Shown here one piece after another: positions 15,026-33,600 of a stretch of 53,760 nucleotides of DNA. How positions within the stretch are numbered: the stretch's first letter is position 1; the number at the start of each line of letters is the position of its first letter. Below the pieces are notes generated by a model that worked only from the letters and a program-made list of their open reading frames with translations, was not told where the DNA came from and did no database searches. The translations under genes were made by a program, and so were the position numbers. The stretch lies in NCBI GenBank assembly GCA_050124795.1, contig JASFEO010000005.1, positions 1 to 53,760 of the forward strand, given 5' to 3'. The DNA is from Candidatus Pacearchaeota archaeon (GTDB taxonomy: Archaea > Nanobdellota > Nanobdellia > Pacearchaeales > GW2011-AR1).

Positions 15026-15098
15026 AGCCCCATAGTACAGTGGTCAAGTATCCAGGACTTTGAATCCTGGGACGCAGGTTCGAATCCTGCTGGGGCTA
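15026..15098 (+). tRNA. trnQ: tRNA-Gln(TTG), no intron, CCA not encoded
   Basis: Acceptor AGCCCCA/TGGGGCT, anticodon arm CAGGA-CT TTG AA-TCCTG, GTTCGAATC T-loop; A1-U72 pair typical of archaeal tRNA-Gln. Confidence 0.97.
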
Positions 15099-24012: not shown

Positions 24013-24837
24013 TTATAATTCTAAGTTGTCCAGAGGACTTTTAATATTTTCTAAATCTGATTTTGCAATGTGAGTATAGATCTGCGTTGTTCTTAAATTT
24101 TTGTGACCAAGGAGTTTCTGAATTTTTCTTAAATCTATTCCCTGCTCCAGAAGATGCGTTGCAAAACTATGCCTTAAAACATGGGGTCTTATTTTTTTTT
24201 GAATTGCTTTTATTGATGCTTTTTCAATTATTTTTTCAATTGTTTTGGGAGAGTATTTTTTTCTTCTGTTTGATTCAAATAAATAATTTTTAGGAGATTC
24301 TTTTAATAAATAAGTTAAGAGTTCTTTTTCAAGATTATTTGGGAAGAGCATGATTCTGTCTTTTGCGCCTTTTCCCTGGCGCACGACGATGATTTTTCTT
24401 TCGATGTCTATGTTATTTGGTTTTAAATTTAAAAGTTCAGAAACTCTTATTCCAGAAGCATACATTAATTTAATCATAATTTTGTGTTTTGGGTTTTCAA
24501 TTGATTGAATTATTTTTATTGTTTGTTCTTTATTCAAGACTTCAGGAATTTTTGATTCTTTTTTATAATGCGGAAGAAGGAATTCTTTTGATTTTCCAAG
24601 AGTATTAAATAAGATTTTAAGTGCAGCATATTTTTGTTTAATGTAACTTGTGCTTTGGTTTTTGTTAATTGAGTCTAGTATATATTTTTTAACTTCATCA
24701 TTTGTTATTTTATTCGAACTTTTTTTTAAGAAGTCATTTAAAATATTCATATAAGCTTTTATTGTTTTATTTGAGAGATTGTTTAGTTTTAGGAAATTCT
24801 CATATTCACTTTTAATCGAAATTATATCCTGATTCAT
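24013..24837 (-). CDS. Tyrosine recombinase, integron-integrase-like but lacking the IntI insertion
   Basis: SGIRVSE, RQGKGAKDR, HVLRHSFATHLLEQG, LLGH…TTQIYTH, C-terminal SPLD. Confidence 0.9.
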   Translation of the reverse strand: MNQDIISIKSEYENFLKLNNLSNKTIKAYMNILNDFLKKSSNKITNDEVKKYILDSINKNQSTSYIKQKYAALKILFNTLGKSKEFLLPHYKKESKIPEVLNKEQTIKIIQSIENPKHKIMIKLMYASGIRVSELLNLKPNNIDIERKIIVVRQGKGAKDRIMLFPNNLEKELLTYLLKESPKNYLFESNRRKKYSPKTIEKIIEKASIKAIQKKIRPHVLRHSFATHLLEQGIDLRKIQKLLGHKNLRTTQIYTHIAKSDLENIKSPLDNLEL

Positions 24838-24877
24838 TATTGAATTAATAAAGAGAAGTTTAAATAATTTTCTAAGA

Positions 24878-24900
24878 AGTTCGATTAAAAGTTGTTATGT
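24878..24900 (+). other. Candidate attI site (core GTTATGT at 24894)
   Basis: GTTATGTG is the exact complement of CACATAAC opening the first attC-like site; lies just upstream of the integrase promoter. Confidence 0.6.
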
Positions 24901-24947
24901 GCAATATTACTCGGGCACTTTTTTCTTCTAAATGTTATCAAGAAATC

Positions 24948-25817
24948 TTATAATCCACTATTTTGAAGTCTCTGTTTCGCAGCAGAAATTTCAGCATAAT
25001 CTCTTGCAGTGGGTTGTGGAAATGGATCAAATCCTAACTCGGCAACAAGCCAGCTTTCTCTTGAATTTGGTCTTCTCCAACTAAATCTTGAAGCAATTTC
25101 TCTATCTTGTTCTATTGACCTTGCAGTTGAAAGACTTTCTTCTCTAATTTCTTGTACAGAATCTAAAACAGACTGTAGAGAATCCGCTTCAAAACCTTTT
25201 TCAGCACAATATTGAGCATTATCACATAATGTATTAACTGCATTTGACCATCCTCTATTACCTTCATTTCTTGCCATTTCCATATAATGACTTACCCCTC
25301 GCTTATATGCTTCAGGTGTTAAATCTTTCTGTAATTCTTGTGGACAAGTTTCCAAACGACCATACAATCCTTCAGGTAATTTCACATATGGATAAGGAAA
25401 TCCTAATCCAACTGTAATTTCCAAACTCTTCATTGTTGCTTCAATATCTTTTTCTGCTTCAACTATTGCTCCAGTTTTTAGATGATCCCTAAATCGAGCA
25501 ATATGTTCTTGCATATGAGAATTAGCTTTATCAACATATGATTGCAACATTGGATTAACCCAACTATGAATTCTTTTGGCTCCAACAACCGAAAGTCTTC
25601 TAATGCTCACTGGTTCATCAAATGGAGTAGAATTCCATCTCATAACTTGATAAACTGTAGGTGGGTTGCTATCATGCAAGAATCCAATATATGTTCTATG
25701 ATTCGTGAATAATGTTGGATGTGTTTCTTTAGGAAATACATTATTGAAATGCCCATTAGGAAGAACTAAGTAAGTATCTCCTTCTTGTCTGACAACATTA
25801 TTAACTGGCTCAATCAT
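24948..25817 (-). CDS. Cassette 1: hypothetical protein
   Basis: 289-aa ORF with own TATA-like box, between attI and the first attC. Confidence 0.75.
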   Translation of the reverse strand: MIEPVNNVVRQEGDTYLVLPNGHFNNVFPKETHPTLFTNHRTYIGFLHDSNPPTVYQVMRWNSTPFDEPVSIRRLSVVGAKRIHSWVNPMLQSYVDKANSHMQEHIARFRDHLKTGAIVEAEKDIEATMKSLEITVGLGFPYPYVKLPEGLYGRLETCPQELQKDLTPEAYKRGVSHYMEMARNEGNRGWSNAVNTLCDNAQYCAEKGFEADSLQSVLDSVQEIREESLSTARSIEQDREIASRFSWRRPNSRESWLVAELGFDPFPQPTARDYAEISAAKQRLQNSGL

Positions 25818-25952
25818 AAATTAGTGAATAAGCTAATTCTTTAAATAGTTTTCTACTTCAAAATAGTAATCTGATTTCTTAATAACGAAAAAAGTGCCCT
25901 GCGTCATACTGTGCCTACGCTTCGCTTCGGCATTTTTTCTTGCAGAAAAAAC

Positions 25953-26064
25953 ACATAACAGCGATTAAGAGACTCCGCCTTGCAGGCTCCGTCCAAATTG
26001 AATTTTTGGAGGTCGCTACGCTCCACTCTCAAAAATCCAACTTCTCTTAATCGCGATGTTAATT
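25953..26064 (+). repeat. attC-like site 1
   Basis: ACATAAC-AGCGATTAAGAGA … TCTCTTAATCGC-GA-T-GTTAATT. Confidence 0.8.
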
Positions 26065-26115
26065 GCAATTTGAGATTTGGGCTAAAAATAGAAAGGGCTT
26101 TGGTTTTGTATATAC

Positions 26116-26892
26116 TCATTGATATTCTTGCTTTGCAATACCTAAAAGAATATTTCTCACCATTTTAAGAGTATTTGGTTGAACTTTATCTAAAGTGTCA
26201 TGAAATCCATTAATTTCCAATTTTTCTAATATTTTTGGAGTCGGTCCTCCTTCTGATTCCCATAACCTTCCTAGGTCAGATGAAACCGTAGAGAAAACAG
26301 TAGAATCAATTCCTGCTTGATTTAAAATAACATTATCTGAAGGAGGAGTTCCCGCATAAAAAAAAGGAATATTCAACTCAGTACATACTTTTTGGATTCT
26401 TCCATTCATGGCTTCTGAATTTTTAACATAGTCTTCCCACGATAAATCATAAGATTTACTACCTAACATAATTGCATTTCCTCTACCAGTTACCTCGAGA
26501 TTATATACTTTTGATAAATTCAAAAAGGGATCATTTACATATCCTTTTGAACCAATTAATCCAATTTCTTCTCCGTCAAAGAATAAAAACCCAAAAGGTA
26601 TTGGAGAACCTTCCTTCACCATTTTCTCTAAGGTTGACAACATCTCGATTACTGCAGAACCATTATCCAAAATTCCATCTCCTTCAGGGGTTTTGTCATA
26701 ATGTGCAGAAAATGCTGAAACTGGTAAATTTTTTGAATTTCCATAAACTACCCCAATATTTAGTAATTCTAAACCATCGTGGGATATTTTTTGTCTTAGA
26801 GGAGTCATTCCCATAGAACTTAAATTATCTAAAATAAATTCCCTTCGTGAATTATAATCACATCCCGAGTAATCTGCAATTCGGTCTAACAT
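26116..26892 (-). CDS. Cassette 2: M28-family zinc peptidase
   Basis: SAHYD, GILDNGSA, DGEEIGLIGS, SDN, HDTLD. Confidence 0.85.
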   Translation of the reverse strand: MLDRIADYSGCDYNSRREFILDNLSSMGMTPLRQKISHDGLELLNIGVVYGNSKNLPVSAFSAHYDKTPEGDGILDNGSAVIEMLSTLEKMVKEGSPIPFGFLFFDGEEIGLIGSKGYVNDPFLNLSKVYNLEVTGRGNAIMLGSKSYDLSWEDYVKNSEAMNGRIQKVCTELNIPFFYAGTPPSDNVILNQAGIDSTVFSTVSSDLGRLWESEGGPTPKILEKLEINGFHDTLDKVQPNTLKMVRNILLGIAKQEYQ

Positions 26893-26943
26893 AATTCTTG
26901 ATAATTATGTAAAAGTTATAAACCTTTCGGATAGTTACTATTA

Positions 26944-27893
26944 TGTGCTCCCACCTGACATATGTCGTAGGCTAAAATAACAAACTAAAATCATTATAAA
27001 CTTCATCAGGAGTTTTATTATTCAAACTCATATGAGGTCTGAAATGATTATATCTCATTCTCCAAAGTTCAGGATCTCCATTGCAAAACTTAAACTCTCT
27101 TTTGAAAGTCTGAAATAATCTTTCGACCTTCCCTTGAGTTGTTGGGCTATGAATTGCCCCGCGAATATGTTTAATCCCTTTTTTTCTCAATTTCACATCA
27201 AATCTGGAATGTTTGCTTTTCAATCCATATGCTGAACCATTATCAGTTAAAATCTCTCTGGGTTTTCCATAAACTTTGATTAAATCATCAATTAATTTAA
27301 TCACAACATCTGTTGTAACCCGATTAACAGGAACAAAAGCTAAACTTTTTCTCGAACAATCATCGACGACAGAAATAACATATTTATTCTTAATCTTTTG
27401 GTCGCTGTGATCAATCTGCCAAAGAGAATTAGGAGTCTTTCTTTGCCAGCGAATATATTTAATTCGCCTCTTTCTTCTTTTAGGATTATTAACTAATTTA
27501 TTTTTATTGAGAATTTTATTAATTGTTGTATGACTTAATGAAACAAGACCCTCAATCTTCTCAGCTCCCCAACCAGTTTCTTTTTTTATCTCCACAATTT
27601 TGCTTTCTAATTCAGAAGTTATCTTTCGATAAATTGTTTTTGGTTTTCTTGATTTATCCCTTAAATTCCAATCTGAATTATTCAGTTTATTTGTCCACCT
27701 TCTTAATGTCCTTATGTTAACTTCATAATTAAACTTAGCAAAGAGTATTTTCCTGCATTGGTTATTAGTGTGCCCCTTGATTCTAAGCTTGAAATATTCT
27801 TTTCTGATTAATTCTTTTTTCATTCAAAACCGAAGAAATCATCTGCGAACTAATTTTCGGTTTTGCCTAGGACATATGTCCCTTGCTTATACA
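26944..27893 (-). mobile_element. IS481-family insertion sequence
   Basis: Both ends read TGT-N10-GACATATGTC(G/C)TAGGC; single transposase; no target duplication seen. Confidence 0.85.
26972..27823 (-). CDS. IS481-family DDE (rve) transposase
   Basis: HTH, WQID, DDCSR, TDNGS, QGKVER, YNHFRPH. Confidence 0.92.
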   Translation of the reverse strand: MKKELIRKEYFKLRIKGHTNNQCRKILFAKFNYEVNIRTLRRWTNKLNNSDWNLRDKSRKPKTIYRKITSELESKIVEIKKETGWGAEKIEGLVSLSHTTINKILNKNKLVNNPKRRKRRIKYIRWQRKTPNSLWQIDHSDQKIKNKYVISVVDDCSRKSLAFVPVNRVTTDVVIKLIDDLIKVYGKPREILTDNGSAYGLKSKHSRFDVKLRKKGIKHIRGAIHSPTTQGKVERLFQTFKREFKFCNGDPELWRMRYNHFRPHMSLNNKTPDEVYNDFSLLF

Positions 27894-28401
27894 TCTTTAT
27901 CATGGTTTGAAATCAATGAAGATAAAGAAAATTGATTTTCAAGATTTGGTAAATGAACTCGCTGGTAATAATAAATTAAAGAAAGTGTTTTATTATACTG
28001 CAAGAATGGATAAGAATTTTGATGAGAAAAGATACGCCAAGCATCAAAAATTTCTTAAGAAACTTTCATCTATTCCGAACTTTAAAATTTCATATTGCAC
28101 TTTCAAGAAAATCATCGAAAAAAATGGTAAAGTCAGTTATGCTGTTAAAGGCGATGATGTTCAGCTAGCAAATGATATGATTGTTGGAGCCTATGAAAAC
28201 CTTTATGATATTGCAATATTGGTTTCAGGAGATGAAGACTTCAAGCCAGTTGTGCGTACAGTAAGAAAACGAGGAAAGGTAGTTGAAAATATTTTCTTTA
28301 GAGGAGGATCTTCATCAAGATTAAGGAAAACTTGTAACTCATCAAAGAACATTCGTTTTATTTTAGAAAAAATAAATAGGCGTCCTGGCATTACAGAGTA
28401 A
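27894..28401 (+). pseudogene. 5'-truncated NYN (LabA/DUF88, PIN-like) nuclease gene
   Basis: YYT, KGDDV, AILVSGDEDF, GKVVE; the N-terminal DxxN motif is replaced by the IS end. Confidence 0.8.
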
Positions 28402-28625
28402 CCCAGGACAGTTATTAGTATTATCACTAATCTAAACTTTAAAAATTCTTCGGTTGCCTAATTTTCGCCTTTCGTGGCGACTTACTTTTTAGAAAAAAGT
28501 AAGCAAAAAGCGCGCGCTTCCCACCCTAAGAATGGAGATTTAAATTTTCTTAACGCAGAAGAAAAAACTCCTTCGCCTTCGGCTCGGTGCCGTCTTGCAG
28601 ACTTTCGGCATAAATGCCTCACACG

Positions 28626-28749
28626 ACTTAACAGGGGATAAAGAGTAATTTCTTGCAGAAATTCCCCAAATTCTTCTTCCAGCTCGAGCCTGTGAGGTTC
28701 CGCTCCAGTCTCGAGGTCAGAAGAACTTTCCTTAAGCCCAATGTTAAGA
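28626..28749 (+). repeat. attC-like site 2
   Basis: ACTTAAC-AGGGGATAAAG … CTTAAGCCCAAT-GTTAAGA. Confidence 0.7.
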
Positions 28750-28919
28750 AAAATATTTCCACTTTCTCCGTCGCTGTTTTAACTTTTATCGTCGGAGATA
28801 AATCTCAAATTCTGATTTTGATATCTCCGCTTAACGCTCCAATGCGAAATTAAAATTGTCGCATAACATCGCTGATTAAACGAAATTTTTGAAAAATAAA
28901 AATAATAAAAACGAAAGAT

Positions 28920-29162
28920 TTATTCTAATTCTTTTTCTAATTCACTTAGACCTTTGTTCTCACCATATTTGATTTTGTTATAGAATCCTAATCCCATTGA
29001 CGCCAAAAATGCACCGCCAATCAAATATGGGTGGTCGAAGCTTTTGTCGCCGACAACATCAACAACTCCTGCAACCATTGAACTTGATGCCACGCCAAAA
29101 GCAAATCCATCATAGAATTCTCTAAGTGAATATTCTCTTAGTTTTTGAATTTTGTCATTCAT
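28920..29162 (-). CDS. Cassette: small two-TM membrane protein
   Basis: 80-aa ORF with BRE/TATA and GGAG upstream. Confidence 0.7.
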   Translation of the reverse strand: MNDKIQKLREYSLREFYDGFAFGVASSSMVAGVVDVVGDKSFDHPYLIGGAFLASMGLGFYNKIKYGENKGLSELEKELE

Positions 29163-29357
29163 TTTAATTCTCCTTACTAAGAGAATAAATTAATAGTTTA
29201 TAAATCTTTCGTTAATTTACTACTTGAAAGTTAATAACTTATTTTTCAAAAACTACGATATCAAAGAATTTTCGAAAGTGGAAATACTCTTCGGAATTTT
29301 TTTGCTTCGCAAAAAACCACTTGCAGTTATTCCTCGTCCTCGCCTTTGGCTCGGATT

Positions 29358-29481
29358 TCTTAACAGCGATTAAAACTCCGCTCCGTTGCACTCCGCTACG
29401 CCCTTCGGTTTTGTGGGATGCCTCAAAACCTACGGGGAAATAAATCCTTCGGATTTACTTCTCTTAATCGCGATGTTATAC
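29358..29481 (+). repeat. attC-like site 3
   Basis: TCTTAAC-AGCGATTAA … TTAATCGC-GA-T-GTTATAC. Confidence 0.8.
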
Positions 29482-29558
29482 GAAATTTCAAACCCTGTCT
29501 TGATGTAGAAAAGATTAAATAGGATCTGTTTTAATTAACATATTAGAGGATATAAAAT

Positions 29559-29957
29559 ATGAAAAAAGTAGAAAAAATTAACAATAATACTTTAGCCGTT
29601 ATAATTGGATTAGTGATTAGTATCGGCTGGATTTTTATGGGGCTTGATATTGGCTTCCAATTTGTGGCTCCAGATCAAATAAGTTACATACTAACATTGG
29701 CTGGGCAACGCCATACTATTATGACCCTATTAGCTTTAGTTCTAATTCCAATATGTGCCAGAGAAAATCGATGGGGTTTATTATCTGCAATGATTCTAGG
29801 AATAGTCACATTAACTTTATCGTTAGCCCACATCATCTATATGCTAATTGCTACTCCTTCTGGATTTGAATCACAAATATTTGGGCCCACGATTTGGTCT
29901 ATAATTCAAATACCAATAATATTTTTTGGTTATAAAGCTCAACAAGCATTGAGATAG
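29559..29957 (+). CDS. Cassette: four-TM membrane protein
   Basis: 132-aa hydrophobic ORF, GAGGA upstream. Confidence 0.75.
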   Translation: MKKVEKINNNTLAVIIGLVISIGWIFMGLDIGFQFVAPDQISYILTLAGQRHTIMTLLALVLIPICARENRWGLLSAMILGIVTLTLSLAHIIYMLIATPSGFESQIFGPTIWSIIQIPIIFFGYKAQQALR

Positions 29958-30083
29958 TTAAGCCGAATTTACTTAGAGGTAATCATACATCTGATTTTTG
30001 AAAAATTTAAGATATTAGTAAAAACCGCAGGGTTTGAAACTCAAGGGGGCGCTGCGCTTTCGTCGCTATTGCTCCTCACCCTC

Positions 30084-30183
30084 GTATAACAAGGGATAAA
30101 AGGAAAATTGTTCGGCTCGCAATTTTCCCAAATTTTTCTTCCACTTCGTTCCAGAAAAACTTCCCTTAAGCCCGATGTTAAAT
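30084..30183 (+). repeat. attC-like site 4
   Basis: GTATAAC-AAGGGATAAAAGG … CCCTTAAGCCCGAT-GTTAAAT. Confidence 0.75.
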
Positions 30184-30340
30184 CTAATTCTAAAACCTGC
30201 CTACCAAGACTAAAATAAAAATTATAATGTTGTTATCTTCGTTAAAATCATAAAGAAAAAACTTACAAAATTGCTACGCAGCTTTGCCTAACAAAATTTT
30301 AACGAAATTGTTGAAAAATAAAAATTATAGAACGAAAGAT

Positions 30341-30673
30341 TTACTTTTTTGTTTCTTGATTTATTCTAGATAGAATTGTTTTGTATAATTCTTGTGCTTT
30401 AGCTTTTTCCATATTGTCTGGAAGAATGTCGGCTGTTCCGTCTCTGTCTTTGTCGTAAAATGAAAGTTCAATTCCTTCTGGAGTTTTTAGTCTTAATCTA
30501 TAATCAGATGTCCATCCATGTCCCTTTCCCCAAGATGTTTGTTCGTAAACAACCCGATTTCCATCTATGTTTCCTGCATAGATTAAGCCTTTATTACTTT
30601 CATCTTTACCACAGCCTGACAAAGCTAAAGCTCCTGCCAAAACAATTCCAGTTAATGTTCTTTTGATTGTCAT
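30341..30673 (-). CDS. Cassette: putative lipoprotein
   Basis: Signal peptide with lipobox LSGC; DKDRDGTAD acidic loop. Confidence 0.7.
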   Translation of the reverse strand: MTIKRTLTGIVLAGALALSGCGKDESNKGLIYAGNIDGNRVVYEQTSWGKGHGWTSDYRLRLKTPEGIELSFYDKDRDGTADILPDNMEKAKAQELYKTILSRINQETKK

Positions 30674-30842
30674 ACAATAAAGAATAAATCAATACTTTAT
30701 AAATCTTTCGTTTCTTTTACTACTTTGAAGTTAATAATCTATTTTTCAACAACTACGATAACAACGAATTTTCGGCGAGCCCTGAACTTCTCCCTTCGGT
30801 CGACCACGTTGCACTCTCACTTCACTTCGTTTCGTTTGGGGA

Positions 30843-30979
30843 GTTTAACAGCGATTAAGAGGAAAATCCCTTGCAGGAATTTTCCCAAATCCTCGCCATC
30901 TCTGAAAAAATTTCCAGCTCTGTTTCACGAGGGAAATTTTTTCGAGGGCTTCGGACTTCTCTTAAGCCCGATGTTAAAC
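30843..30979 (+). repeat. attC-like site 5
   Basis: GTTTAAC-AGCGATTAAGAG … CTCTTAAGCCCGAT-GTTAAAC. Confidence 0.8.
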
Positions 30980-31026
30980 TCAATAAATTTGAAGTCCTAA
31001 AAAATAGAAAGGGGGCAGTTGCATAA

Positions 31027-31317
31027 CTACTTCTTGATTATTTTCTCCAGATTAATCTTATATTTCTCAAAAGCATCTTTCTTAAATGTGTAATGCACAT
31101 GCATTCCTTTTTTTTCAGATTCAAGCATTCCAGCATCAACTAACAACTTTAAATGTTTAGACACAGCAGGTTGAGATATATTAAGATTTCTCACAATAGC
31201 AGATACACACAAACTATGTTTTGAAAGCAATTCTAGAATTTTTAATCTATTTGAATCTCCTAAAAGTTTTGCAATCTTTGCAGTTTCTTCTATCAATTTG
31301 CTTCCCATAAATGGCAT
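31027..31317 (-). CDS. Cassette: ArsR/SmtB-family regulator
   Basis: LGDSNRLKIL, LCVSAI, SQPAVSKHL, G…HY. Confidence 0.9.
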   Translation of the reverse strand: MPFMGSKLIEETAKIAKLLGDSNRLKILELLSKHSLCVSAIVRNLNISQPAVSKHLKLLVDAGMLESEKKGMHVHYTFKKDAFEKYKINLEKIIKK

Positions 31318-31337
31318 ATAACTTAATGACTATTTAT

Positions 31338-31955
31338 TTATTTGCTTTTTTCATATTTAATTGCTTTTACGGGACAAGAATCCGAACATTCAAAACATAA
31401 AAGACAATTCTTTTTATCAATATTCAAGTTTTCATCAATAGCAACTCCAGGACAAATTTTCTCACATTTTTTACAATTAATACATTTATTTGTTTTTTTG
31501 ATCTGCATTCTTGAAAACCTTGCTGTTAATGAAAAAAGCATTCCCCATGGACACAAATATCTATGCCAAGTTCTAGCGTCAAATATAATTGTAGCAAATA
31601 ATCCTAATCCAATTATTATCAAAGGAAGAGGAAAGTTTTTACCCTGTTTCATCAACATTATCTTAAAAACAAAGCCAATTATGAAAAGAATGAATAAAGA
31701 GTATCTTAATAGCTCATTCTTGAAAAATGCCTTAATTTCTTTATTTTTGAATCCTAATTTCCTCTTTATTTTGTCAATAGGTGTTATAATTGTATTTATT
31801 GGGCATACCCACTCACAATAAAATCTTCCAAAGAAAAAAGACCCTATCAGAAACAGTAATACTATCCCCATCCAGATTTTATTTTTTTCTAAGATTATCA
31901 AAGTAAAAAAAATTAACAAAAACAAAAATTGGATTCCTTTTCTGATTTTTTGCAT
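31338..31955 (-). CDS. Cassette: membrane 4Fe-4S binding protein (NapH/MauN/YccM-like)
   Basis: GRFYCEWVCP, YLCPWG, two CxxCxxCxxxCP motifs; ATG at 31955 or 31967 is more plausible than 32075. Confidence 0.85.
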   Translation of the reverse strand: MQKIRKGIQFLFLLIFFTLIILEKNKIWMGIVLLFLIGSFFFGRFYCEWVCPINTIITPIDKIKRKLGFKNKEIKAFFKNELLRYSLFILFIIGFVFKIMLMKQGKNFPLPLIIIGLGLFATIIFDARTWHRYLCPWGMLFSLTARFSRMQIKKTNKCINCKKCEKICPGVAIDENLNIDKKNCLLCFECSDSCPVKAIKYEKSK

Positions 31956-31956
31956 T

Positions 31957-32094
31957 TTATTTTTCATTGCATAAACAGTTTCCTTTGAAGCAGTCTTTTC
32001 CTTCTTTGGTTCTTTTGATAACAATTTCAGAACCATTATCTTCAATTGTTCCAATTTCTTTTCCTTTGCATACAATCTTACATTCTCCGCACAT
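31957..32094 (-). CDS. Cassette: 45-aa Cys-rich peptide not in the ORF track
   Basis: MCGECKIVCKGKEIGTIEDNGSEIVIKRTKEGKDCFKGNCLCNEK; GGAGGT upstream; stop 1 nt before the next ATG. Confidence 0.7.
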   Translation of the reverse strand: MCGECKIVCKGKEIGTIEDNGSEIVIKRTKEGKDCFKGNCLCNEK

Positions 32095-32308
32095 TTTTAA
32101 TACCTCCTAATATTTAGTTATATAATCATATAATTATATTGTTATATATTTAAACCTTTCGATTCGTTATGCAACTGCCCCTCAATCTTGTTTTTGATGT
32201 ATCGCTGTCGCTTATTGGATAAAACGGACTTCAAATTTACTTTGAATTTTTCCTTCGCTTCGCTACGGAACGTTGCACTAATCCTCGGTCTCCGTTTCAC
32301 TCCGACGG

Positions 32309-32429
32309 ATATAACAGGAATTTAACGGAAAAATGCTCGGCTCGCATTTTTCCCAAATTTGATTTTCCAGCTCTGTTACGCTTCGCTTCACGAGGGAAAA
32401 TCAAACTTCGTTAAATTCCGATGTTATAA
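32309..32429 (+). repeat. attC-like site 6 (array end)
   Basis: ATATAAC-AGGAATTTAACG … CGTTAAATTCC-GA-T-GTTATAA. Confidence 0.8.
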
Positions 32430-32463
32430 AATATTTTAAAAACTTCTTTTGCTTTGTTAGTTA

Positions 32464-33600
32464 ATGAAAAAGGGTGAAGGAAATTCCAGAAATGTTTGGC
32501 TATTGGGAGGCTCAAGTTTTTTTAATGATGTTGGAAGTGAAATGATTATGCCGATTTTACCGTTTTATATTTTGGCTCTTGGGGGCGGAGGTATTGCTCT
32601 TGGTCTTGTTTCAGGTTTGCGTGAGGGGTTGTCAAGTTTGTTTAAAATTTTTGGAGGATATGTTTCTGACAGAACAGGAAAAAGAAAAGTTTTTGTTTTC
32701 TTTGGTTATCTTTTTTCAGTTGTTTTTAGATTTTTTCTCGGGCTTGTAAATTCCTGGCAATATCTTGTTACTTTTATTTCCCTGGAGAGATTTGGAAAAT
32801 TCAGGGATTCTCCTCGTGATGCCATGATTTCTGAAGAGAAAAAAACTTCAGGAAAAAATTTTGGAATATTGCAGATGATGGATACTCTTGGCGCTATTTT
32901 GGGAATTATTTTAGTATTTATATTTTTTTGGAAATTTAATTTTAGTTTTAAGACAATAATTTTCTTGGCTGCAGGGATATCTGTGTTTTCATTGTTGTTT
33001 TTAATTTTTGTAAAAGATTCAAAAGTTAAGAAGTCAAAAAAAAGTTTATTGAAGGGGATAAGTGGTTTGAATAAAAATTTAAAATATTTTATTTTTGTTT
33101 CATCTGTTTTTTCTTTTGCGAATTTCGGGCTTTATATGTTTTTGTTATTGGTTGCAAAGGAATTTACAGGAAGTTATGTTTATTCAATTTTGTTTTATCT
33201 TATTTTTAATGTGGTTTATGCATCTATGCTGGTTCCTTTTGGAAAATTGTCTGACTGGGTCGGAAGAAAAAAAATTCTTGTTCTTGGGTATTTATCATTT
33301 TTTGGAGTTAGTCTTGGGTTTATTTATTTTCAGACTTTTTTTCATCTGGTTGTTTTATTTATTCTTTATGGATTTGTTTATGCAATAAAATATCCCTGTC
33401 AAAAGGCGCTTGTGTCTGATTTGTCAGGGGAGATGAAGGGAACTGCATTTGGATTATTTAATATGTCAATTGGTTTGGCAGGAATTCCAGGCGGGATAAT
33501 CGCAGGAATTTTATGGAATGCAAGTCATGATTTAATGTTTGGTTATTTATCTGTAATTTCAGTTGCTGCACTATTTTTATTAATTTTTGTTCGGGAATAA
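32464..33600 (+). CDS. MFS transporter
   Basis: About 12 TM; GYVSDRTGKRK and GKLSDWVGRKK motif A. Confidence 0.9.
   Translation: MKKGEGNSRNVWLLGGSSFFNDVGSEMIMPILPFYILALGGGGIALGLVSGLREGLSSLFKIFGGYVSDRTGKRKVFVFFGYLFSVVFRFFLGLVNSWQYLVTFISLERFGKFRDSPRDAMISEEKKTSGKNFGILQMMDTLGAILGIILVFIFFWKFNFSFKTIIFLAAGISVFSLLFLIFVKDSKVKKSKKSLLKGISGLNKNLKYFIFVSSVFSFANFGLYMFLLLVAKEFTGSYVYSILFYLIFNVVYASMLVPFGKLSDWVGRKKILVLGYLSFFGVSLGFIYFQTFFHLVVLFILYGFVYAIKYPCQKALVSDLSGEMKGTAFGLFNMSIGLAGIPGGIIAGILWNASHDLMFGYLSVISVAALFLLIFVRE

Follow-up and report, generated by a model that had tools for sequence, protein, structure and literature searches.

What kind of system keeps a row of gene cassettes, each closed by a fold-back site, beside a tyrosine recombinase of the XerA family? 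The question is raised by a locus of a Candidatus Pacearchaeota archaeon, a member of the DPANN archaea (assembly GCA_050124795.1). The window, meaning the whole stretch of DNA that was analysed, comprises 53,760 nucleotides (nt) of contig JASFEO010000005.1, which is contig C5 of a genome (G000) of 1.06 Mb that is divided into 38 contigs and about 90% complete. A recombinase gene lies on the minus strand at 24013–24837, and an array of six cassettes starts on its 5' side and extends rightward to 32434. The region at 24.0–32.4 kb is probably a chromosomal integron-like gene-capture platform, composed of this XerA-family recombinase, a dif-like attachment site (attI) and the six cassettes.

The cassettes end in six repeats of 97–134 nt each, located by nhmmer positions at 25951–26069, 28624–28754, 29356–29486, 30082–30188, 30841–30984 and 32307–32434. 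A site reads, in order, a left box of five variable bases and TAAC, one A, an inner-stem half of 11–12 nt, a centre that is variable but contains a conserved CCAAAT, the complementary half of the inner stem, GA or AA, a T, and GTTA followed by five variable bases and in most cases AAT. The first 11 bp of a cassette form its right arm, made up of TTA, five private bases and usually AAT. The first-pass annotation of this DNA had noticed that some cassette starts complement the left box (R'') of the same cassette's site, and had read this as a footprint of insertion from circles. All three pairs that it listed hold as described: the 8-mer at 24894 complements 25952–25959, the 9-mer at 28743 complements 29356–29364, and the 9-mer at 29475 complements 30082–30090. 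Each is better than the match to the site's own downstream box, which agrees in the conserved GTTA alone (a prefix of four) every time. The caveat attached to sites 5 and 6 also stands, as site 5 matches its own downstream box at nine of nine positions and site 6 shares a prefix of six with its own box versus four with the previous one. Cassette 2, which fits neither box (5 and 6), is an exception that the annotation had left out.

Complementarity was scored between each left box and the right arm of the preceding site over the six positions after GTT (4–9 after the G), and at least five of six counted as a match. Cassettes 1–6 of the window score 5, 3, 6, 6, 3 and 3. With right arms sampled randomly from those of this genome, the probability of three matches among six is 0.0085. 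About 25 sites were found genome-wide by nhmmer, those outside the window on C3, C23, C24, C29, C30, C31 and C34, and 12 of 19 adjacent pairs match (11 of 17 unique combinations). The corresponding figure for pairs that are neither adjacent nor a site's own is 31 of 607 (5.1%), and none of 100,000 permutations reached 12 matches. One cassette on C29 matches through an unusual box, GTTCCCAG against CTGGGAAC, so the footprint is no by-product of the consensus. A covariance model built on 26 sites gathered 120 sites from 23 genomes. In the 22 other genomes, 39 of 61 adjacent pairs match, 30 of them perfectly; the same-genome null is 7.1%, and 39 matches were reached in none of 20,000 permutations. 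Matches to the own downstream arm occur at 11 of 112 sites, near the null rate. The enrichment over shuffled pairings in homologous arrays, on which the original proposal had been made to depend, is therefore present. The private complementarity between the two ends of a cassette is real and far beyond chance.

The sites themselves carry the marks of a conserved fold. A 15-nt pattern of the 3' half occurs seven times in the window against 1.28 expected (none of 100 shuffles as high), and six of the occurrences are the array sites. AAC and GTT are invariant in the 26-site alignment, and the 120 sites fit the covariance model. Within the inner stem of the 26 aligned sites, nine of 12 pairs have changed on both sides and 83% of cells are paired. 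The covariation score is 0.280 versus 0.153 after shuffling (0 of 500 shuffles as high), with slid controls at 0.06–0.12. In only about half of the cases do the five variable bases pair with the downstream arm of their own site, as expected if their true partner is the start of the cassette. A two-nucleotide bulge on the plus strand, G or A followed by an A that is invariant in 119 of 120 sites, stays unpaired between the stems on the crossover arm. This model and nhmmer replaced a simple palindrome finder, which had recovered three of the six window sites together with false positives and, among 20 related loci, G002 only.

The strand that would fold can also be read from the sites. Among non-Watson–Crick cells of the 120 sites, with the innermost pair excluded, plus-strand A·C outnumbers G·T by 81 to 17. 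Since A·C on the plus strand is G·T on the minus strand, these cells are tolerated wobbles on the minus strand, which also folds better by 1–4 kcal/mol in all six window sites. We infer that the folded substrate is the bottom (minus) strand, as in integrons. When each cassette was circularised in silico at G/TT and folded, as the annotation had proposed, the outcome was divided: cassettes 1, 3 and 4 were stabilised by 5–6 kcal/mol as predicted, and cassettes 2, 5 and 6 were destabilised by 1.5–4.4 kcal/mol.

These features bear on a rival explanation in which Xer recombination proceeds on double-stranded DNA with no folding at all. The right end of each site (the 3' half of the inner stem, an 8-bp spacer and the right arm) would then act as a duplex dif-like site, in the manner of dif modules. 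Both ends of every site do read as arm, spacer and arm when taken as duplex DNA, attI is itself a duplex dif-like site, and modules flanked by Xer sites are known Xer-dependent mobile elements according to the relevant passages of PMC6449649. For a duplex reaction, the left box and the 5' half of the inner stem would be dispensable, yet both have been retained and covary. The wobble asymmetry points to selection on one folded strand, and the spacer of the right-end duplex is 8 bp versus 6 bp in attI. Overall, the duplex explanation is unlikely.

The position of the crossover is a separate matter, as complementarity alone cannot distinguish a crossover in the right box from one in the left box: either keeps two private boxes with the gene. 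The claim that insertion occurs at G/TT is borne out by four independent comparisons, which put the junction in the right-hand GTT. On C3, a second recombinase gene precedes an attI-like site and a 373-bp cassette with no open reading frame (ORF) that is present in two tandem copies; their identity sets in immediately after GTT, once following attI and once following the first full site. The attI of the window and that of the orthologous G002 locus agree up to GTT(A) and then diverge into entirely different cassettes. C24 and C31 both begin with the same site, and their sequences differ directly after its GTTA. Metagenome runs were compared as assembled contigs, and cassette 6 recurs, from 30973, in contigs of the unrelated run X2 behind a different attC 3' half. 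One X2 record begins at 30973; another spans 31011–31721 with 11 differences, and a loose end before 30968 carries the 3' half of a different site.

Recurring site types complete this picture. One type has a constant left box and three different right arms (C24, C31 and C34), and another has a constant left box and four right arms (C3 twice, C23 and C30). A crossover at the left box was rejected, given that the left box moves with the centre while the right arms vary. A crossover in the conserved centre (CCAAAT) was likewise rejected, as the inner-stem halves pair within a site and not across cassettes. Strand exchange between G and TT of the right-hand GTT is thus the supported placement. Such an exchange leaves a cassette both of its sets of private bases, and the arm following a site belongs to the next cassette. 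Two joints in the source run X1 (26103/29197 and 28507/29313) were discarded as evidence, their sides being 24–28 letters long and lying in repeats.

It is extremely improbable that a palindromic repeat of selfish or regulatory nature accounts for the hairpins, such as repetitive extragenic palindromes, miniature inverted-repeat transposable elements or terminators, rather than recombination sites. Small hairpins seen by eye upstream of several left boxes could be cited in favour of a repeat of this kind. It would leave unexplained the private end complementarity, the occurrence of the same cassette behind different sites, the tandem copies bounded by GTT and the fixed position beside the recombinase gene.

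The identity of the recombinase sets this locus apart from classical integrons. The window protein (274 amino acids; PF00589, 7.4e-42) scores 234.5 bits against NF040815 (recomb_XerA_Arch), above the cut-off of 220. Against TIGR02249 (IntI) it reaches 179.8 bits in two stretches, below the cut-off of 265. Its closest solved relatives are XerA of Pyrococcus and Thermoplasma (4a8e and 5hxy), and the motifs aligned to the XerA catalytic regions are retained. The match to VchIntIA (2a3v) is split into 14–195/11–197 and 191–271/238–319, skipping about 40 residues (~198–237) at the place of the IntI-specific domain, an addition around patch III. By its sequence, the window recombinase is therefore an XerA-family protein that lacks the IntI-specific insertion, and not a canonical integron integrase. 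The same holds more widely: none of 61 related genomes has a protein above the TIGR02249 cut-off, and all matches to this profile in these genomes are split into 1–183 and 237–315, skipping profile positions ~184–236. The second tyrosine recombinase of the genome, on C3, has 260 amino acids and is 42% identical to the window enzyme. The recombinase of the orthologous G002 locus is 67% identical and has the same SRP54 neighbour, which among the loci examined occurs in G000 and G002 only.

Association between recombinase and array is the second line of evidence on the protein side. Both tyrosine recombinases found in this genome carry an array on their 5' side in the same divergent geometry. This geometry recurs at 11 loci in 10 related genomes, and G002, G006, G007, G011, G027, G036, G038, G042 and G047 show it on a single contig. 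A recombinase lies within 600 nt of a contig end on its 5' side in 13 of 56 rows, as expected if the repeats break assemblies there. The covariance model matches 28 of the 61 related genomes and 61 of 151 genomes sampled across the phylum. From its matches in other families of that sample, 16 distant arrays were picked by eye for having several matches on one contig. A recombinase stands at the predicted end and on the predicted strand in eight of the 16, and at the far end in none.

Quick trees were computed for 56 rows and for 64 rows, the latter with the eight distant-array recombinases added; branch support is given as SH-aLRT (Shimodaira–Hasegawa-like approximate likelihood ratio test). 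In the 56-row tree, one grouping (SH-aLRT 85) unites all nine array-linked rows with nine contig-end rows and one further row. All nine rows with a palindromic dif-like site within 1 kb belong to a different clade, which has 31 rows (SH-aLRT 98) and no array. All 17 array-linked recombinases, the window protein included, lie outside the dif-linked clade (31 rows, SH-aLRT 98–99), which holds all nine dif-linked ones. The window protein is hence not in the clade of the dif-linked housekeeping recombinases of related genomes. By every sign available, the XerA-family recombinase would appear to run the array.

An alternative is that the array belongs to the ordinary clusters of attC sites lacking integrases (CALINs), depends on a canonical IntI encoded at another place or by a different organism, and adjoins by chance an XerA-type gene for the chromosome resolvase. 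Most reported archaeal integrons are in fact CALINs, with six IntI and 539 attC sites in 75 genomes in the portion of PMC9668308 that bears on this point. A genome that is 90% complete and split into 38 contigs also leaves room for such a gene. The alternative conflicts with the lack of IntI above the cut-off in all 61 related genomes, and with a recombinase–array geometry that is shared by 11 loci of 10 related genomes and eight of the 16 distant arrays. It also conflicts with an attI that abuts the recombinase gene and is conserved to the crossover base, and with the place of the array-linked enzymes outside the dif-linked clade. This alternative as a whole is therefore very unlikely, and the integron-like platform run by the adjacent XerA-family enzyme is the reading followed here.

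The attachment site links the platform to Xer biology. Its proposed location at about 24894 is supported by comparison: attI spans 24879–24905 on the plus strand, with the crossover between 24894 and 24895, and is conserved with G002 up to GTT. It consists of a left arm of 10–11 bp (24879–24888), a 6-bp spacer ending in G (24889–24894) and an 11-bp right arm (24895–24905) that is also the first 11 bp of cassette 1. The GTT at 24894 is located 57 nt upstream of the recombinase start codon. An inverted repeat with 23-nt arms that are 83% complementary (24801–24823 and 24877–24899) is visible in G002 as well; its left arm lies within the recombinase coding region, and its right arm includes the left arm of attI. 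Among loci of the array-linked and contig-end group with at least 60 nt upstream, a G|TT junction precedes the start codon by 60–100 nt in 15 of 15, and the AAT ending is present in 14.

Where a related genome has a single xerA and the contig around it is long, there is near the gene a palindromic site in which an arm ending in TAA is followed by a 6-bp spacer and an arm starting with TT. The window attI shares the left arm of this dif pattern and a 6-bp spacer that ends in the crossover G. The G002 attI, with zero mismatches to the pattern, ranks first among the dif-like sites of that genome. The window attI has two mismatches, no better than a control with the reversed pattern. A scan of G000 at two mismatches returned about as many places as the reversed control, among them the window attI and a palindromic site on C2. 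No separate dif in G000 reached 13 of 15 positions, except for a repeat at contig ends. This repeat is one 25-nt stretch, with two mismatches to the dif-like pattern, that occurs at five contig ends (C7:25–49, C13:26–50, C14:34458–34482, C15:25–49 and C28:5608–5632) and is probably the end of another repeated element.

Among the recombinases of G000 and G002, no member of the dif-linked clade was found. A tentative possibility is that in these two genomes the array enzyme is the only Xer and attI doubles as the dif of the chromosome, so that genes would be captured where dimers are resolved. The locus would then represent a living example of integrons arising from Xer/dif, with a class of integrases free of the IntI domain in DPANN archaea.

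At locus L054 (G018:C4), the stretch ~60–330 nt upstream of another recombinase gene contains an attI-like hairpin with G|TT and, after it, a left box that adjoins a right arm almost without interruption. This arrangement resembles an "empty" recombined site. It was missed by the covariance model, hence arrays with other site families are probably undercounted. In the groundwater metagenome run X7, compared over 25722–32600, site-like parts reach a summed contig depth of hundreds to 1,500 and gene bodies are near zero. This repeat family is accordingly very abundant there, in other organisms.

The proposed mechanism would begin with a free cassette in the form of a circle, in which the left box and the cassette start pair. 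The bottom (minus) strand would fold into a hairpin mimicking a dif site, and the adjacent recombinase could then exchange one strand with attI at TAA|C on the bottom (G|TT on top), the boundary between spacer and arm where Xer enzymes cleave. Replication would complete the insertion, as in integrons and in Xer-mediated integration of phage CTX.

Several points weigh against this picture. No circular cassette, excision product or enzyme activity was observed in these comparisons of assembled contigs. Three of the six window cassettes (2, 5 and 6) lack the footprint; an insertion sequence accounts for cassette 2, but not for cassettes 5 and 6. The left box of cassette 5 matches its own downstream arm at six of six positions and the previous arm at three of six. 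This genome has three such own-arm matches; two follow tandem repeats of the same cassette start (on C31 and probably C24), and site 5 does not. The crossover point and the bulge share an arm, which would differ from canonical attC sites. Among the distant arrays, three of 16 have no recombinase in the stretch that was fetched and five of 16 are cut off by a contig end. Support for the array-linked recombinases as one clade is weak, at SH-aLRT 85 in the 56-row tree and with no supported clade in the 64-row tree. Finally, cassette ORFs have no common orientation and hence give no sign of a shared cassette promoter.

The failure of cassette 2 (26059–28743) has a specific cause. The window segment 27893–28607 is 92.4% identical over 715 nt to C31:4335–5048, which lies within an intact cassette on C31 whose start complements the left box of cassette 2 of the window. 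In the window, the original start has been replaced by a multi-copy insertion sequence (IS) and an M28 peptidase gene. Cassette 2 breaks the complementarity rule because the IS fused two cassettes. The element spans 26940–27885 and encodes an rve-type transposase of 283 amino acids on the minus strand. Sequences like its ends occur at the ends of 11 other contigs, at about 91% identity for the left end and 79–82% for the right end; the IS is therefore multi-copy and breaks the assembly.

How the platform relates to known systems depends on which side is considered. Integrons are defined by attI, fold-back attC sites, a G|TT junction and end complementarity, as set out in the pertinent section of PMC2674596. 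Judged from its letters, the DNA side of the locus fits this definition, and the protein side does not, as the IntI insertion is missing. That insertion is described as necessary for recombination in a passage of PMC9668308 and as essential for integron function in one of PMC8138268. Shared with integrons are a recombinase reading away from an adjacent attI, short cassettes ending in an imperfect palindrome and the AAC...GTT boxes. The G|TT crossover, a start that complements the cassette's own left box, a structure conserved over sequence and an apparently folded bottom strand are shared as well. Unlike in integrons, the recombinase is without the IntI insertion and its score places it with XerA, the layout of attI is dif-like (11-6-11), and the right arm is conserved to 11 bp ending in AAT. 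The position of the bulge on the crossover arm would be a further difference. Cassette ORFs also lack the common orientation of integron cassettes, which mostly have no promoter of their own and are transcribed from a shared one; expression from a single promoter is thus unlikely.

With archaeal Xer/dif the platform shares the protein family (NF040815) and an attI that resembles the palindromic sites next to xerA in related genomes. Xer cleavage takes place at the ends of the spacer, as stated in part of a review (PMC8371274), and the cassette junction is likewise at a spacer end. Unlike in archaeal Xer/dif, the enzyme falls outside the dif-linked clade, the right arm of the site is replaced by that of the latest cassette, and the partner sites are hairpins of ~100 nt, not duplex sites of 28 bp.

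The nearest mechanistic parallels, by analogy, would be Xer-dependent elements, namely phage CTX and the Acinetobacter dif modules. Phage CTX of Vibrio cholerae, one of the integrative mobile elements that make use of Xer (IMEX), is described in the relevant part of PMC3442271 as a folded single strand that imitates dif; Xer exchanges one pair of strands with the duplex site of the chromosome, and replication resolves the product. Successive IMEX elements stack at the site, as do cassettes in this array. Unlike them, the elements here are small cassettes that lack replication or phage genes, form long arrays and have a dedicated recombinase paralogue beside the site. In plasmids of Acinetobacter, accessory genes are grouped in discrete modules that have Xer-type sites at their borders and move between replicons, as an account in PMC6449649 outlines. 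Unlike the array here, these modules have 28-bp duplex sites and use the host XerC/XerD, with no fold-back site and no adjacent dedicated recombinase. The sites of dif modules alternate in orientation.

The start/R'' footprint is a textbook property of integrons and the classical proof of the cassette recombination point, so it is not new by itself. The interest lies in its bearer, an integron-like platform that relies on an XerA-type recombinase and a dif-like attI and is common among these archaea. Literature searches for attC with XerA, integron with DPANN, CALIN with Xer, and integron-like systems in archaea found no description of an integron-like array run by an XerA-type recombinase. 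The enzyme of this array would be working in the absence of a domain that is held to be defining for, and essential to, integron integrases. Arrays run by XerA would explain why archaeal surveys contain hundreds of attC sites but almost no IntI. Most archaeal arrays were called CALINs by Ghaly et al. 2022, in the sections of PMC9668308 concerned, and arrays like this one may be among them. A testable model of how integrons could have originated from Xer/dif comes with the platform, which also indicates a major route by which ultra-small archaea exchange genes.

The remaining features concern the layout of the locus and the content of its cassettes. An SRP54 (ffh) gene lies immediately left of the recombinase gene. 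Cassette 1 (24895–26058) carries a minus-strand ORF of 289 amino acids at 24948–25817 and ends in the site at 25951–26069. The composite cassette 2, whose genes were assigned by Pfam, contains the M28 peptidase gene (26116–26892, minus), the rve transposase gene of the IS (26972–27823, minus) and a NYN-domain gene (27883–28401, plus), followed by the site at 28624–28754. Cassette 3 (28744–29475; site 29356–29486) has an 80-amino-acid ORF at 28920–29162 on the minus strand, cassette 4 (29476–30177; site 30082–30188) one of 132 amino acids at 29559–29957 on the plus strand, and cassette 5 (30178–30973; site 30841–30984) one of 110 amino acids at 30341–30673 on the minus strand. The small ORFs of cassettes 1, 3, 4 and 5 have no Pfam or NCBIfam family; the NCBIfam scan covered these four and not the other cassette genes. 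Cassette 6 (30974–32423) encodes an ArsR-type regulator (31027–31317) and a membrane 4Fe-4S protein (31338–32075), both on the minus strand and assigned by Pfam, and its site at 32307–32434 is the last of the array. At Rfam gathering thresholds, the window has no attC match, and a tRNA gene at 15026–15098 is the sole match. The median cassette spacing is 810 bp. Among 70 cassettes, the longest ORF runs along the array in 36 and opposite to it in 31, with three having no ORF; in the window it is on the minus strand in four of the five cassettes scored.

Cassettes 3 and 5 carry unrelated small minus-strand ORFs, yet by eye they have conserved non-coding flanks in common (28880–28940 and 29185–29280 versus 30300–30345 and 30680–30780). 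These flanks include, again by eye, a stretch upstream of each ORF that resembles an archaeal promoter with a TFB recognition element (BRE) and a TATA box. The BRE/TATA-like stretches suggest that cassettes may carry their own promoters. Just upstream of several left boxes (25925–25950, 29300–29325 and also on C30), inspection by eye revealed small hairpins with A/T stems and short GC-containing loops, which may act as terminators or belong to a longer site. At 28545–28553, 80 nt upstream of the left box of site 2, inspection by eye showed another copy of the 9-mer complementary to the right arm of this site. It is followed by a degenerate half-site, which is possibly the remnant of another site.

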